Part shown: piece after piece, positions 48,281-53,626 of the stretch
How positions within the stretch are numbered: position 1 is the stretch's first letter
Layout: every line of letters starts with the position of its first letter
Source: Mayamaea pseudoterrestris
Lineage: Eukaryota
Reading direction: 5' to 3'
NCBI GenBank assembly: GCA_027923505.1
Contig: BROI01000008.1
Location: forward strand, 310,001-374,000
Length of the DNA stretch: 64,000 nt
The notes under the pieces: generated by a model
Seen by the model: the letters and a program-made list of their open reading frames with translations, nothing else
Told to the model about the DNA's origin: nothing
Databases searched by the model: none
Program-made: the position numbers and the translations under genes

Positions 48281-48808
48281 TTATTTCAAATTTTTGTTTA
48301 ACTGCGCTACCTGCCTGTTGACCCAACGATCCGAGTGGTAGGTGCTTTCGCCGACTGTCCATCCTCTGACATCCTTCATGATCTCAGCTTCGTGCTTCAA
48401 GATTCCATTCTCGCGTTCCACATACCAGCGATCCTCTTCTGCTTGAAGGATTGGCGCCATGGCGTAGCGAGCCCGTCGTTCTTCCAGCTTTTCGCCGTTC
48501 ATCTGCTTGTTGTATTGGCAGACGCGATAGAATCCAAAGGCAATCGCCGTAGTCGCGACACCCCAGATGACAGCTCCACTGGGTCCACGATTTCCTTTGC
48601 GTAGATTTAAGTTAATCTTCAATGTAATGACCAAACAGAGTGAGCAGAACTTGTAGGCAGGCCTCGCCACTGACGTTGCGTGTCCTTCGCGATTGTGCAC
48701 CTCACAACGCTTTGACTACTGTTAATCAACTCTATCACTTACACTCGGGAAACCACCACGAGGTGGCATATCCTGCACGGGTGGTCGATTATCGGGGCGA
48801 AAGCTCAT
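48281..48808 (-). CDS. NDUFA13: NADH dehydrogenase subunit NDUFA13 / GRIM-19 (B16.6); intron 48617-48742
   Basis: Exon 1 'VQDMPPRGGFPS'; exon 2 'RGPSG', 'PILQAEEDR' and 'IMKDVRGWTVGE'. Confidence 0.93.
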
Positions 48809-49047
48809 GTTGACGAACAGCGCCGAGGAGAGATAAGATGACTTGACAAGGAGTTGCTGCTGCAACGTTCCGCGTCGCTTGCGGCAGGCTGGGCTCCATC
48901 GGCGCGGTATGTAGAGTCAGACCCTAGCGTACATTTAACGGCACACTGATCATGCATACTCCGCACATAAAGCACATCAGAGCCGAGTGTCTTTACATAC
49001 CGGTATCTCAAACTACTTCTGAAATCAACATTACTTACAGATAACTT

Positions 49048-50256
49048 TTAAAAGGTAAAGATTGCTGCAGTCATGAGAAGGAAGATGAGCCACTTCATAC
49101 GTAACCAATTGTTTGCCCGACCACTAGAGACGTCACCTTTATCAGCAGCTAACGGCACATCGTCGCCGAAACCTCCAATCGGCTTCGCTGATAGGCTGGT
49201 TGCCCCCTGCATGGCTACTTCCAATGTGGACGCTAGCCTCACTGATGCAACCATCAGTCGCTGCCATACAACTTCGACTCGAGATACATAGTAGTCTTGC
49301 GATAACATGGTGCCGTCGACGATCTCCGTGTCGTTCACGTTGCGATAAGCGTACATGAGCGCATACTCAAGCGACTCCTGGCCCCAAGCGTCTGTGCACT
49401 CGAGACTTGATCCATCAGCGCAGTCCAACCATTGGGCCCATTCATCCTCTGATGCTTGCTGTAGGCGTTCCCAAAGTGCGTCTTCCAATGCCACGCGTGA
49501 CCCACCAAAGTTGTCGCGCATACTTTTTTCAATCATGAATGAGTCCCAGAATGAGTGAAGGTTTCCTTGCTTGCGAAGAAAACGACGGGAGTCCATGACA
49601 GCTTCTTGCGACTGACGGCGGTGTCGTGCTTGATAGTCGTAATAGTCATCGTCGCTGTCCCCTTCAAAGTCCACGTGAATGGTGTTTCCACCCAAGTCTG
49701 CTAAACGGCTGCAGTGAAGTGGCTGATGAATGTCACCAACGAAATGGACAAGAAACATGAGGCTTGTGCGTTGCAAAAAATCGTCAGGAGCGACATCAAC
49801 GACGTTGTTCATACGCATGATAATCTGGGTGTTGTTGAAAATGGCGCCTGGGACGCAAAGATTATCCGAACAGTCACGGGCGTAGTCAAAGTAGCAAACA
49901 TCCGTCTTTTGTAGGCTATTTGTAATTGGACAAGGCTTTTGGTTGACGTTAAGGTAGTGGAGCGGTCCAGTCCAGCTATAAGTGGACGAGTAGCGCGCGG
50001 TGTCAGCCCAGTCAGCGACTTGCGCGAGTGGACTGCATTTGTCGTTGCAGTCTTTGTCAATACCGTAGGAGCTGCTGGCGATTATATCATACAACTTAGT
50101 TTGAGTGTCATTGGAGATGAGATCCCACGCAAGATTGGCAACAATCTGGTGGCCTTCCTTGCCCCAAGCTTGCACCGAATGAGGGAGTGCGAAGAAGGGC
50201 AGTCCAATGATGATGATGCGCTGGAATAATGGTAACTGTCGATGATTTTCCCACAT
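49048..50256 (-). CDS. S1/P1 nuclease, secreted with hydrophobic C-terminal tail
   Basis: 'AWGKEGHQIVA', 'WAD', 'LHY', 'HFVGDIHQPLH' and 'NLHSFWD'. Signal peptide plus C-terminal 'WLIFLLMTAAIFTF'. Confidence 0.93.
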   Translation of the reverse strand: MWENHRQLPLFQRIIIIGLPFFALPHSVQAWGKEGHQIVANLAWDLISNDTQTKLYDIIASSSYGIDKDCNDKCSPLAQVADWADTARYSSTYSWTGPLHYLNVNQKPCPITNSLQKTDVCYFDYARDCSDNLCVPGAIFNNTQIIMRMNNVVDVAPDDFLQRTSLMFLVHFVGDIHQPLHCSRLADLGGNTIHVDFEGDSDDDYYDYQARHRRQSQEAVMDSRRFLRKQGNLHSFWDSFMIEKSMRDNFGGSRVALEDALWERLQQASEDEWAQWLDCADGSSLECTDAWGQESLEYALMYAYRNVNDTEIVDGTMLSQDYYVSRVEVVWQRLMVASVRLASTLEVAMQGATSLSAKPIGGFGDDVPLAADKGDVSSGRANNWLRMKWLIFLLMTAAIFTF

Positions 50257-50496
50257 ATTCAAAAGCAAAATCGTACAGTTTGTCCAATAGGATCGTCAAG
50301 TTTACAAAAAATGGGCAACAAGAGCACCGAGCTACATATATTCCACTGCCGCGCTGCTGGTTTGTGTCGTGGCGGATCGGTCATGAACAATCTTCCGCTT
50401 TCATGTCACGCCTTGACGTCATCTGTAACCACTGCGACATTATGTGACAGTCGGCTCGTCCATCGATTTTGTTCCGCTTCATTTCTGTAGTTGACC

Positions 50497-51612
50497 ATGG
50501 CATTTCAGGAAGATAGCGATGATTTTCAGCAACTTGCTAGACGCAAGCGAACGTCGAAGAAAAGAACTATTTACATTGGCAATCTTCCGCATGATTCCTC
50601 GGATCTGCCGACGCAACTCTTTGATCTGATTCAGACTGTGAATGTGACGCTCGATACAACCACGTCTTCCATTCACTGCGACAATCTAACGTCTTGCCAT
50701 GCGCTTGTCGAGTGCGAGCAGGAAAAAGCCGATCTAATCATTGCCAAGCTTCACAGCAAACAGTTTCAAGGGCGACGCCTCATTGTTCGGCGAGAGAAGC
50801 AGCAGCGAGAGCAACAGAAAGAAAGACAAAAGGTTGAGTTCAAGGCAAGCTCCTGGGCCAAGCCACAACGCGAAATTCCACGATGCGAACGTACAAGCTG
50901 CACGAAAGAAGCAGATGATACTTGCAATGAATTTTCAGTGCCAAATTCAGTTACTCAGCACCAGGGATCGCTAGCCACACTTTTGGCAGATTACGGAGAA
51001 CAAGATTTCGATTGGAAGAAAACAGTCGTTCCAGATGCAAGTATGTCTGCAACTACGGATGTACTAACGCATGACAATAGCGTCTTGGGGCAACATGGAA
51101 AGGCACCTATTCACATTTGCATCACGAGCTTTGGTTACCGACATGGGGCGCCGCCAAACGCTGGATGGTCGCACGCGCACCCGCTCGAGCCGTTTGACGT
51201 TCGAGACATTGAACCCGTTCCTCATTACTTGGCTTGGCAGCATGGTCTATCAGCTTCGGTTAAATTCGCTTTAATACGGCAGGACAAAGAGGGCTTGATT
51301 AAGAAGATGTCGAAAGACATTGCCGCGCAAGTGGTAATAGCTCTCGAAGCAGCAATTGAGCAAGGCGGGCATGGATACGCATTGCCGCTCCGAGTGGCGA
51401 TAGCCATTGGGAGCGATAATGGTCAGCACCGTAGTGTCATGGTGGCGGAGCAAGTGGCAATGGCGGTTCGAAGGCAATTGCGTGAGAATGTGGAAAAGAG
51501 GCTTGGGACGTCGTTAAAGGTGTCGGTTGGGACGGCACATCGTGACATGGAGCGAAAAATCCGGGACAATTCGAGCAAAACAAAGCAAAACGACATGGAA
51601 GATGATTGGTAG
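50497..51612 (+). CDS. RRM + RapZ C-terminal-like domain protein
   Basis: RRM 'IYIGNLP..HALVE..LHSKQFQGRRLIV'; RapZ-CTD-like 'ITSFGYRHGAP..FDVR..IAIGSDNGQHRSV.VAE..HRD'. Confidence 0.75.
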   Translation: MAFQEDSDDFQQLARRKRTSKKRTIYIGNLPHDSSDLPTQLFDLIQTVNVTLDTTTSSIHCDNLTSCHALVECEQEKADLIIAKLHSKQFQGRRLIVRREKQQREQQKERQKVEFKASSWAKPQREIPRCERTSCTKEADDTCNEFSVPNSVTQHQGSLATLLADYGEQDFDWKKTVVPDASMSATTDVLTHDNSVLGQHGKAPIHICITSFGYRHGAPPNAGWSHAHPLEPFDVRDIEPVPHYLAWQHGLSASVKFALIRQDKEGLIKKMSKDIAAQVVIALEAAIEQGGHGYALPLRVAIAIGSDNGQHRSVMVAEQVAMAVRRQLRENVEKRLGTSLKVSVGTAHRDMERKIRDNSSKTKQNDMEDDW

Positions 51613-51802: not shown

Positions 51803-53626
51803 TCAAGCATCGTCGCTTTTGGACGGCGACAATTCAGGCGAGATGCCCATTAAACGGATTAAGTCCTCTATTTCCGCATCCACTTCAGACCTCTTGTGCT
51901 CGACGCCATCGGGGGCCGAAGATGCTGGTGAATTACTCGCTGCAATCATCTTCTTCCTTCCTGTTAAAGATTCAAGTTCATCCATTATGAGCCTTTCATC
52001 GAATGTCGTGTCATCGTCATCGTCTGATCCAAAAGCATCCATAATGCCCTCAAAATTCCCTTCCATGAGGTCATCAACGACACGCCGTGTTGCTTGAATG
52101 ACTTTTCTAAGTTTTACGGCCAGCCATTGGCGCGCAGCTTCGACACTTGCTCTGTTCCCAGCATCATCTCGTATCCGCTCTACTGCCTTGGTACGAGCCG
52201 CAGTGACAGTTCTGCGAATAAGCTCCAATCCCATCTTTGTGCGCTTAATAATGATTCGCGTTCCTTGTCTCATCAGTACTTCTCGAATTGATGTTCCGGC
52301 ACCAACATCAAGTTCTTCGGGAGCATCGACTCCTTCAAAGAATTTGTCAATGTCGTCAAGACCGTCCACAAACTCGTTCGTAGGCTTAATTGAAAGTGGT
52401 AAGTTGCTGGTCTTGTCTTCGAAGACCTTCTCGAATGCAGCATTAACGAGTTGTGCTGCTTCAATCTGAGGGTCCGAAAAGATGTGATCGGTCTTGTTGT
52501 TAAGAATGTCATATTGGAAAAAAGTGAACAGCAAAGAAACATTAAGCGGCGCTTTCCGCCGACTAGTTCCCCAAATTGCACAGTATGGTTGCTGAAGTGG
52601 TTCTTTTGCTAACAAATTTGTCGTACGTTCAACCTCGGTCGGCTCTGTAATTTCATCGTCAGTCGTTTTAAAATCGTTTTCCGTCGACGCTTCCTTTAGT
52701 TCGACGGTTGCCGGTGCACCTGCTGACTCCGCACTCGACTCAGACAACACACTCGTCTCTTGTAGAGACATTCGGTTTAGCATGACTTCCTTTTTGGAGT
52801 TGCCAAATAATTCACCGCCAATGGCAAAGGATACGGGTTCTGATGTGACTGGCGGCTGAGAGCTGCCAATAAATTCGTCATACTGAACCGCATCTTCATC
52901 TATATGTTCAATTTGAACATCATCCAGCTCTCTTGGCTCGTTTTCAACTTGGCTTTCAGTTTCAACTTTTGTCGTTCCTGGATGAAGATTGTCAGTTAAA
53001 TCACTCTCCTTGAAAGCAACGCCCGACGCCGTGTCACTGGCAACGCAGCTGTGCGTAAATGCATCGACTTGTGCACAGAGACCATCATCATCATCATCGA
53101 TTAGTTCGAACTGTTCACCGTGCAATATAAGCTCGTCTTCTGGTTCGATAATGTCTTTCCTTGCAAAATCGCCCATGTCGACTAATGCGGTATGCGATGT
53201 TGCAGTAGCCATCATTGCATTGACAGCAAATGGCTCGTTTCTTTCTGCTGCTTCGTGATTGTGATTCATTGATTCAGGATTAAAAATTTTTGCTTCGTCA
53301 TATGATATTGAATCATATGATATTGGTTCGGTGACTGATAATTCGTCATTCTTGTCTGTCGAAAAAGTGCCATCACCAACTTGGTCCTTTTGGTCATCCA
53401 AGACCAGCAGTTGCAGCTCACTCGATACAATGCCATGACCCGCCATGCCATCGTAACCGTCTTCGGTAACCATGATGTCAATATCTTCGAAAGATATCGA
53501 CAGATCTTGGCATTGGGTGCCAATGAAACAAAAAACGAACAAGTAAGCATAAGTGGAGAAGAAATTTCTCGGTCGGCAAGGAGGGATAGCAGCCACAATC
53601 CAGAGTGTGCGGGACATTTGGCTCAC
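51803..53626 (-). CDS. Uncharacterised acidic protein with hydrophobic N-terminal segment
   Basis: 607-codon ORF (ORF-track start is non-ATG; first ATG at 53617 region uncertain). Low-complexity acidic body, ordered-looking block 'FVDGLDDIDKFFEGVDAPEELDVGAG.SIREVL'. Confidence 0.6.
   Translation of the reverse strand: MSQMSRTLWIVAAIPPCRPRNFFSTYAYLFVFCFIGTQCQDLSISFEDIDIMVTEDGYDGMAGHGIVSSELQLLVLDDQKDQVGDGTFSTDKNDELSVTEPISYDSISYDEAKIFNPESMNHNHEAAERNEPFAVNAMMATATSHTALVDMGDFARKDIIEPEDELILHGEQFELIDDDDDGLCAQVDAFTHSCVASDTASGVAFKESDLTDNLHPGTTKVETESQVENEPRELDDVQIEHIDEDAVQYDEFIGSSQPPVTSEPVSFAIGGELFGNSKKEVMLNRMSLQETSVLSESSAESAGAPATVELKEASTENDFKTTDDEITEPTEVERTTNLLAKEPLQQPYCAIWGTSRRKAPLNVSLLFTFFQYDILNNKTDHIFSDPQIEAAQLVNAAFEKVFEDKTSNLPLSIKPTNEFVDGLDDIDKFFEGVDAPEELDVGAGTSIREVLMRQGTRIIIKRTKMGLELIRRTVTAARTKAVERIRDDAGNRASVEAARQWLAVKLRKVIQATRRVVDDLMEGNFEGIMDAFGSDDDDDTTFDERLIMDELESLTGRKKMIAASNSPASSAPDGVEHKRSEVDAEIEDLIRLMGISPELSPSKSDDA

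Follow-up and report, generated by a model that had tools for sequence, protein, structure and literature searches.

A diatom protein family joining a RapZ-type C-terminal domain to a divergent RNA recognition motif

A 64,000-nucleotide stretch of Mayamaea pseudoterrestris DNA (contig BROI01000008.1, positions 310,001 to 374,000; hereafter the window) carries a gene whose 371-residue product, P0001, combines a homologue of the C-terminal domain (CTD) of the bacterial protein RapZ with a divergent RNA recognition motif (RRM). What is new is a RapZ-type domain in a eukaryote-specific architecture, already known just in the form of automatic database labels ('RapZ C-terminal domain-containing protein', 'RRM domain-containing protein' and, at JGI, 'RNase adaptor protein for sRNA GlmZ degradation'), and our literature searches found no paper on this RRM-RapZ family. 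The reading that we prefer, and to which we would give about an even chance, makes P0001 an adaptor that binds RNA in the cytosol or the nucleus and whose phosphate pocket is remodelled. A first-pass annotation of the gene had proposed this architecture and the replacement of a motif Cys by Ser, both of which were confirmed, as well as a role in sugar-phosphate sensing, for which no support was found.

The two domains of P0001 and the gene that encodes them

The features on which the identification depends are the following (positions are those of the window):

50497..51612, plus strand: complete single-exon open reading frame (ORF) of P0001, ATG at 50497, stop codon at 51610-51612, 371 residues
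50557..50802, plus strand: divergent RRM, residues 21-102, with RNP2 IYIGNL and RNP1 SCHALVEC
51094..51564, plus strand: RapZ C-terminal-type domain, residues 200-356, recognized by Pfam, hhalign and Foldseek

Relatives of P0001 were counted in three sets: 66 scanned relatives, 152 aligned relatives and a larger set of 235 members of at least 300 residues. The Pfam family PF22740 matched residues 206-334 of P0001 with 41.1 bits (cut-off 27; E = 2.4e-10), covering profile positions 2-117 of 121, and it was found at E ≤ 0.01 in 65 of the 66 scanned relatives, with 49 of the 66 reaching 27 bits. The NCBIfam equivalog for RapZ, NF003828, also scored 41.1 bits, against a cut-off of 244, and aligned over model positions 135-276 of 278 only. 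This limited match indicates that only the C-terminal half of RapZ is present and that the P-loop half is absent, its place at the N-terminus being taken by the RRM, as the first-pass annotation had claimed. Set against bacterial RapZ/YvcJ proteins (NF003828; PF03668 plus PF22740), the CTD passes PF22740 while the full-length equivalog fails.

More sensitive comparisons agreed. E. coli RapZ was a weak match in a phmmer search of PDB sequences (E = 0.009), and hhalign of a 37-sequence family profile against E. coli RapZ 158-283 gave a probability of 95.8% (E = 7.2e-9). An AlphaFold2 model built on the family alignment had a confidence score (pLDDT) above 90 across residues ~200-360 and the fold of the solved E. 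coli CTD; the top Foldseek ranks were RapZ chains (8b0i_A, E = 3e-7; the isolated CTD 5o5s, TM-score 0.73). Among the top matches listed for the model, which were filled by RapZ chains and RRMs, 6-phosphofructokinase, whose fructose-6-phosphate-binding subdomain counts among the nearest known systems, did not appear. Taken together, the profiles and the model show that the P0001 C-terminal domain is homologous to the bacterial RapZ CTD, and the profile and fold comparisons that the first-pass annotation had called for were both positive.

P0001 shares with the E. coli RapZ CTD (5O5S, 5O5O/5O5Q, 8B0I/8B0J) the motifs SFG-x-x-HG, FDVR and G-x-x-x-G-x-HRSV, the residue E259 (E318 in P0001), HR-x-[LM]-E-[KR] at the C-terminal strand, and D182 and R184, which align to D234 and R236. 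Unlike RapZ, it is eukaryotic, nuclear-encoded and RRM-fused, with a long disordered linker and without the P-loop N-terminal domain, so that the swapped tetramer of RapZ could hardly form in the same way. The loop matching E. coli 190-197 is shorter, and P0001 has an additional helix at residues ~267-290 as well as some 12 residues inserted ahead of its final strand. A homodimer prediction with two copies of residues 198-371 scored 0.00 against a mark of 0.42 and is uninformative either way.

The N-terminal domain was recognized as an RRM, in agreement with the first-pass annotation and despite the lack of a Pfam call, from a family profile and from model topology. Compared with PDB sequences, the family N-terminal profile matched cS22 best (4.1e-14) and also U2AF65 (5.6e-8), and 40 of the 41 sequences at E ≤ 0.01 were RRM proteins. 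In the AlphaFold2 model, residues 22-99 follow the order b1-a1-b2-b3-a2-b4 with pLDDT 86-97, and RNP2 lies on b1 and RNP1 on b3. The fold and the RNP2 pattern [IL]Y[IV]GNL are those of canonical RRMs such as U2AF65 RRM2, cS22 of the plastid ribosome, PABP and Pub1, and the RNP2 of P0001 (IYIGNL) is itself canonical. In contrast to these proteins, P0001 has a degenerate RNP1 and scores under the Pfam RRM_1 cut-off (20.7 bits), which was reached by three of the 66 scanned relatives (P0019, 29.3 bits; P0043, 22.0 bits; P0036, 21.0 bits). Family-profile and model evidence thus identify a genuine but divergent RRM. Among the 152 aligned relatives, 99 of the 117 rows without a gap have Tyr or Phe at position 2 of RNP2; in RNP1, position 3 carries His, Phe or Tyr in 88 of 120 rows, and of 121 rows 66 have Leu and 27 have Phe at position 5.

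Both domains lie in one reading frame. All peptides quoted in the first-pass annotation (ITSFGYRHGAP, FDVR, IAIGSDNGQHRSV and HRD) were located in the translated ORF, an in-frame TAG (50488-50490) stands two codons 5' of the ATG at 50497, and P0001 aligns end to end with orthologues of 364-462 residues. Contigs of four public runs that span the stretch have no joints (skipped segments) inside the ORF. A contig of run X3 is collinear with the window over 50305-51142, that is, through the 5' flank, the RRM, the linker and the first CTD strand, with 12 differing letters and two gaps that are probably allelic or strain differences. As contigs of X3 and X4 contain a GT..AG-type joint in the neighboring GRIM-19 gene and the depth of these runs is uneven from gene to gene, we infer that both runs are probably RNA-derived. 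Relatives are also encoded at 10 metagenome loci, and at all six where the ORF is complete the RRM and the CTD are found in one intron-free ORF. The RNP2 and GxHRSV motifs are both present in the MMETSP-derived proteins P0319 and P0064. We conclude that this is a real, intact diatom nuclear gene with a soluble product of ~41 kDa.

Distribution of the family and turnover of the RRM

A word-indexed search returned 72 relatives. When phmmer was run exhaustively against 1.84 billion cluster representatives, 164 of them matched at E ≤ 1e-3, and of these 138 also reached E ≤ 1e-10. Searches with a CTD profile gave 147 proteins of 94-433 residues and 113 of 434-656 residues, all of the same family; these CTD-profile matches included no other RapZ-CTD architecture and none longer than 656 residues, which is weak evidence of absence. 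Every named source is a diatom (Fistulifera, Pseudo-nitzschia, Bacillariaceae, Thalassiosira, Cyclotella, Cyclostephanos, Skeletonema, Mediolabrus, Leptocylindrus, Dactyliosolen) or Triparma, a member of the Parmales, and the nearest protein Atlas cluster is 100% Eukaryota, mainly Bacillariophyta. The stramenopile survey that the first-pass annotation had called for came out positive, the architecture recurring in diatoms and Parmales, though not in stramenopiles generally. The Parmales are the sister group of diatoms, and the family was probably present already in the last ancestor that the two groups shared and has been kept since.

In a tree of the CTD built from 27 of the 235 family rows plus E. 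coli, whose branch is too long for rooting, the Thalassiosirales, two radial centrics, the four Triparma proteins and the pennate groups each cohere. This grouping by taxonomy fits vertical descent. On the prokaryotic side, the family searches found no protein with the RRM-RapZ layout, and the phmmer search from P0001 against the 1.84 billion representatives reached no obvious bacterial RapZ. The loop pattern G-S-[DE]-x-G-R-H-R-S-V-x3-E was also scanned across 185,579 prokaryotic species, with one genome per species and with Arg demanded at the K251 position, so that variants there were missed. The scan gave 24 matches, about the number expected by chance on our own estimate, none of them RapZ-like beyond the motif itself, and no bacterial donor was identified from it.

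A family-specific RRM profile detected the RRM in 180 of the 235 members, including all four Triparma proteins. The other 55 lack it. Of these, 40 look complete, beginning with Met and having 150 or more residues ahead of the CTD; in these 40 the conserved N-terminal motif directly abuts the GW[AS]KP motif of the linker, and in 10 of them a Gly/Arg-rich stretch lies between the two. Several RRM-less proteins (P0111, P0215, P0217, P0316, P0323 and others) carry DDGGWETAP, a basic run, a Gly/Arg-rich stretch and GGWAKPKPP. On a FastTree phylogeny of the CTD, RRM presence changes state 9 times, compared with 23-24 times in the first ten of 200 label shuffles, and the RRM-less forms are thus clustered, yet they are not one clade. 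The RRM can be described from these comparisons as a frequent but dispensable module of the family. Arginine-glycine (RG)-rich sequence is another RNA-binding element, and the alternation of RRM and RG-rich stretches suggests an RNA-related role, for which it is the best indirect argument.

The RapZ CTD is a known bacterial RNA- and metabolite-binding module that has been studied in essentially one organism. Here a domain of this type has become fixed in one of the large groups of eukaryotic phytoplankton, where it invariably lacks the P-loop domain and is usually fused to an RRM or an RG-rich stretch, and its fixation with such partners gives independent evolutionary support to the idea of a portable, RNA-related module. 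For diatom biology, the family is an unstudied, lineage-specific candidate RNA-binding regulator.

The anion pocket and the possible roles of the protein

Three papers describe the pocket of E. coli RapZ. Malonate or sulphate is held there by H190, T248, G249, H252 and R253 (Gonzalez et al., PMC5737377). Backbone phosphates of GlmZ sit at these pockets, activity is abolished by H190A, G249W, R253A, K170A, T248D, C247A and C247S, and the Cys247 thiol was proposed to be possibly catalytic (Islam et al., PMC9841335). The CTD alone binds glucosamine-6-phosphate (GlcN6P) with a dissociation constant of 10 nM, which makes it release GlmY; the pocket is conserved in diverse bacteria, whereas the RNA-binding tail is restricted to Enterobacteriaceae, in which GlmY and GlmZ occur (Khan et al., PMC7073468).

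Two segments of P0001 correspond to the pocket loop and to the beginning of the tail:

51409..51438, plus strand: anion-pocket loop GSDNGQHRSV, aligned to E. coli G246-C-T-G-G-K-H-R-S-V255
51538..51564, plus strand: HRDMERKIR, residues 348-356, aligned to E. coli H276-R-T-L-E-K-R-K283, where the basic RNA-binding tail starts

Residue by residue, the correspondence is as follows (E. coli; P0001; state in the family):

K170; R215; K in 29, R in 23 and H in 25 of 152
H171; H216; H in 82/152
D182, on which the E. coli CTD homodimer depends; D234; kept in 143/152
R184; R236; kept in 140/152
H190; H243; His in 52/152
C247; S306; Ser in 150/152 and in 235/235 of the larger set
T248; D307; Glu or Asp in 123/152 and in 200/235 of the larger set
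G249; N308; variable
K251; Q310; R in 128 and K in 16 of 152
H252; H311; kept in 150/152
R253; R312; kept in 150/152
H276/R277; H348/R349; kept in 147/152 and 130/152
K281/R282/K283; R353/K354/I355; R or K in 98/152, 72/152 and 37/152

Conservation is strongest at S211-F212-G213, D234, R236, S306, G309, H311, R312, V314 and H348, in the pocket and around it; in E. coli such positions bind sulphate or malonate and the GlmZ backbone (PMC5737377, PMC9841335). No part of the protein is better conserved than the phosphate-holding His-Arg core. Next to this core, however, two positions carry residue types that inactivate E. coli RapZ: the loop reads S-E in 176, S-D in 24 and S-H in 18 of the 235 members, and the alignment of C247 to S306 bears out the Cys-to-Ser exchange noted at first. 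The first-pass annotation gives the Cys as part of the general motif of bacterial RapZ, and the E. coli sequence has it. The basic RNA-binding tail of E. coli comprises K270, K281, R282 and K283; beyond R353/K354/I355 the P0001 tail continues helical and ends acidic. The family thus offers hundreds of natural variants at Cys247 and Thr248, positions that are essential in E. coli, and these could help to settle how the pocket functions.

The first-pass annotation had proposed that the protein couples a sugar-phosphate signal to RNA fate. In its explicit form, the RapZ-type domain would sense GlcN6P or a related sugar phosphate in competition with RNA and so couple amino-sugar status to the fate of the RNAs held by the RRM. 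The nanomolar binding of GlcN6P by the isolated E. coli CTD, with release of GlmY, speaks for it, as does the description, in the extract of PMC7073468, of the putative site as highly conserved in diverse bacterial RapZ homologues. So do the His-Arg pair of the pocket, kept in 150 of 152 relatives, and the retention of H190 as H243 in P0001, and an acidic residue at 307 could in principle pair with the amine of an amino sugar. However, the E. coli GlcN6P site is itself called 'yet uncharacterized' in the extract of PMC9841335, where C247S and T248D inactivate RapZ, while the family has Ser in 235/235 and Glu or Asp in 200/235; His at the H190 position is found in only 52/152, and nothing in the 64-kb window links the gene to amino-sugar metabolism. 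As the family carries Ser and acidic residues resembling the inactivating C247S and T248D, GlcN6P sensing of the E. coli kind is not supported for P0001 by the sequence, and the same two replacements make it probable that the E. coli switch, in which GlcN6P and sRNA compete, is not reproduced by the diatom pocket. We regard a sugar-phosphate sensor as unlikely.

The signature CX5R(S/T) marks the phosphate-binding loop of Cys-dependent phosphatases. The E. coli residues C247-x5-R253-S254 and the family's S-x5-R-S have equal spacing; we treat this likeness as a lead only, and the folds differ. On a further reading, a phosphate-cradling loop would make the RapZ-type domain an enzyme, active or dead, that acts on or traps a phosphorylated substrate, an RNA end for instance, while the RRM does the targeting. 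In its favor, no block of the family is more conserved than the pocket loop. In E. coli the anion is bound by H252, R253 and the backbone of T248 and G249 (PMC5737377), a chemically transformed GlcN6P product was seen in the pocket, and the Cys thiol was suggested to fulfil a 'specialised catalytic function' (Islam et al., PMC9841335). Against this, the fold is described as phosphofructokinase-like and not phosphatase-like (PMC5737377), the CX5R resemblance is perhaps a coincidence, and a literature search found no paper linking RapZ with CX5R. Such a role, active or dead, seems quite doubtful to us. Should the Cys of bacterial RapZ prove to be catalytic, the diatom proteins would be a natural Ser variant and could then show which chemistry takes place in the RapZ pocket.

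P0001 has three parts: the divergent RRM, a disordered linker with conserved Trp-containing short motifs, and the RapZ-CTD homologue. In the reading that we favor, an RNA-binding adaptor, the RapZ-type domain would grip the RNA phosphate backbone, or another phosphate ligand, through the His-Arg pocket, remodelled by Ser in place of Cys247 and Asp or Glu in place of Thr248. The RRM or the RG-rich module would supply single-strand RNA contacts, and the linear motifs would bring in partner proteins. P0001 is likely to be cytosolic or nuclear, given an N-terminus without a hydrophobic segment and a basic patch that resembles a nuclear localization signal (NLS). A bolder version of this adaptor would make the family a eukaryotic counterpart of the RapZ principle, independently built on the same borrowed domain, in which the RapZ-type domain and the RRM or RG box hold structured RNA, the conserved Trp motifs of the disordered parts (SWSKP, YGEQDxxW, C-terminal EDDW) call in a decay complex, a silencing complex or another effector, and the S-x5-R-S pocket reads an RNA 5'/3' phosphate or a metabolite; on this version we would place little weight.

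Several observations weigh against RNA binding. Pfam RRM_1 (PF00076) gave no match on P0001 even at E ≤ 1, and the RNP1 motif SCHALVEC has His68 and Leu70 at the usual aromatic positions. Because some 40 members manage without an RRM, this domain is not essential to the core function of the family. In the RapZ-type domain, E. coli K194 and R196, on the RNA path, are unmatched (a 3-residue gap at K194 and Ala at R196), and at the position of K170 only 52/152 relatives have a basic residue (K or R), with His in 25 more. The T248D protein loses RNA binding, an effect attributed to lost charge complementarity in the extract of PMC9841335, and an acidic residue at 307 could for this reason disfavor RNA in the pocket. 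Finally, since the tail is Enterobacteriaceae-restricted while the pocket is widely conserved (PMC7073468), the domain may originally have served to bind a ligand and not RNA.

Some of these points would also suit a protein that does not bind RNA at all: its degenerate, Pfam-uncalled RRM would mediate contacts with other proteins, and its RapZ-type domain would be a regulatory module that binds small molecules within a protein complex. The several conserved short linear motifs hint at protein partners, some 40 members lack the RRM, and control of a two-component system through metabolite binding was proposed as the primordial RapZ function (extract of PMC7073468). We consider this improbable. 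RNP2 position 2 keeps its Tyr or Phe (99/117) and RNP1 position 3 its His, Phe or Tyr (88/120), the RG-rich replacements in RRM-less members point to RNA, and the E. coli CTD binds RNA on its own in the extracts of PMC5737377 and PMC7073468.

Short motifs and neighboring genes

Outside the two domains, P0001 consists of short motifs and a disordered linker:

50497..50565, plus strand: acidic-aromatic motif EDSDDFQ followed by the basic patch RRKRTSKKR, conserved family-wide
50803..51093, plus strand: disordered linker, residues 103-199, with low pLDDT
50848..50865, plus strand: SSWAKP motif (family consensus SWSKP; GW[AS]KP-type), W120 kept in 147/152
50965..51021, plus strand: linker motif GSLATLLADYGEQDFDWKK (consensus PLSELLA[DE]YGEQDxxWK), with a short helix at residues 159-166
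51565..51609, plus strand: C-terminal tail with an acidic stretch and Trp (MEDDW); the last residue is W in 129/235

The order of elements in the family is D-D-[FW] with a basic run, usually the RRM, GW[AS]KP, a variable linker, YGEQDxxW, the RapZ-type domain and the acidic-Trp tail. D-D-[FW] and the K/R run that follows are kept across the family, RRM-less members included. By inspection, the patch RRKRTSKKR looks NLS-like. The P0001 N-terminus reads as acidic and then basic, without a hydrophobic stretch, and by eye it would carry no signal peptide; a hydrophobic run within the first 30 residues was found in three of the 235 members.

In the AlphaFold2 model the linker has pLDDT below 50 over residues 105-124, 128-156 and 179-199, and its length varies widely among relatives. 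Within the YGEQDxxW motif, G167 is kept in 148, Y166 in 118 and D170 in 137 of the 152 relatives. A regex search for this motif in the 235 members found one copy in 146, two in 38 and none in 51. The linker motif DF.SRC..PLSELLAEYGEQD..WK is tandemly doubled in Thalassiosirales-like and some other members, the loci with a duplicated motif being L006:4278-5936, L007:3600-5258 and L010:4197-5840, and also P0019 and P0043. This tandem arrangement suggests, as a pattern in sequence, a modular peptide motif.

Upstream of the gene lie a nuclease gene and the region that it shares with the P0001 gene:

49048..50268, minus strand: S1/P1 nuclease gene (PF02265, E = 9.6e-54), head to head with the P0001 gene at a distance of 228 bp
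50269..50496, no strand assigned: 228-bp intergenic region shared by the two genes; the X3 contig enters the ORF from 50305

The nuclease has a hydrophobic N-terminal segment before its WGKEGH start and a hydrophobic C-terminal tail, which suggest the secretory pathway. Of the compared loci, only L003/L004 show this adjacency again, with the genes oriented alike; identity there is 42% for the RRM-RapZ protein, 43% for the nuclease and 53% for GRIM-19. The window and L003/L004 thus have in common a collinear block of three genes (GRIM-19, nuclease, RRM-RapZ). In L002, in L005 and in the L006/L007/L010 group the upstream neighbors are other genes and the nuclease is not adjacent. Because the block also includes the unrelated GRIM-19 gene, the adjacency looks like retained microsynteny and is no argument for functional pairing. 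The first-pass annotation had allowed that the link might be coincidental, and a block found in one other lineage and missing in three agrees with this. That P0001 is an adaptor for this nuclease, co-expressed from the shared 228-bp promoter region by analogy with RapZ presenting RNA to RNase E, is very improbable, for although RapZ is an RNase adaptor in E. coli (extract of PMC9841335) and the head-to-head pair is also present in L003/L004, the microsynteny, the three lineages without the pair and a secretory-looking nuclease beside an RRM protein without a signal peptide all speak against it.

Convergent with the P0001 gene, on the minus strand at 51803-53626, is a 607-residue ORF that is very acidic with a hydrophobic N-terminal stretch; it matched no Pfam family at E ≤ 0.01 and had no counterpart in the related loci at E ≤ 1e-5. 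The GRIM-19/NDUFA13-like gene lies at 48281-48844 on the minus strand (PF06212, 86.6 bits). Contigs of X3 and X4 skip 126 nt of it, 48617-48742, and the CT..AC ends, which are GT..AG on the minus strand, indicate a spliced intron. Over 50168-50334, runs X1-X3 each have a second short intergenic contig that departs from the window at five letters and that, in X1 and X3, also lacks 1 nt; the shared promoter region would seem to be present here as another allele.

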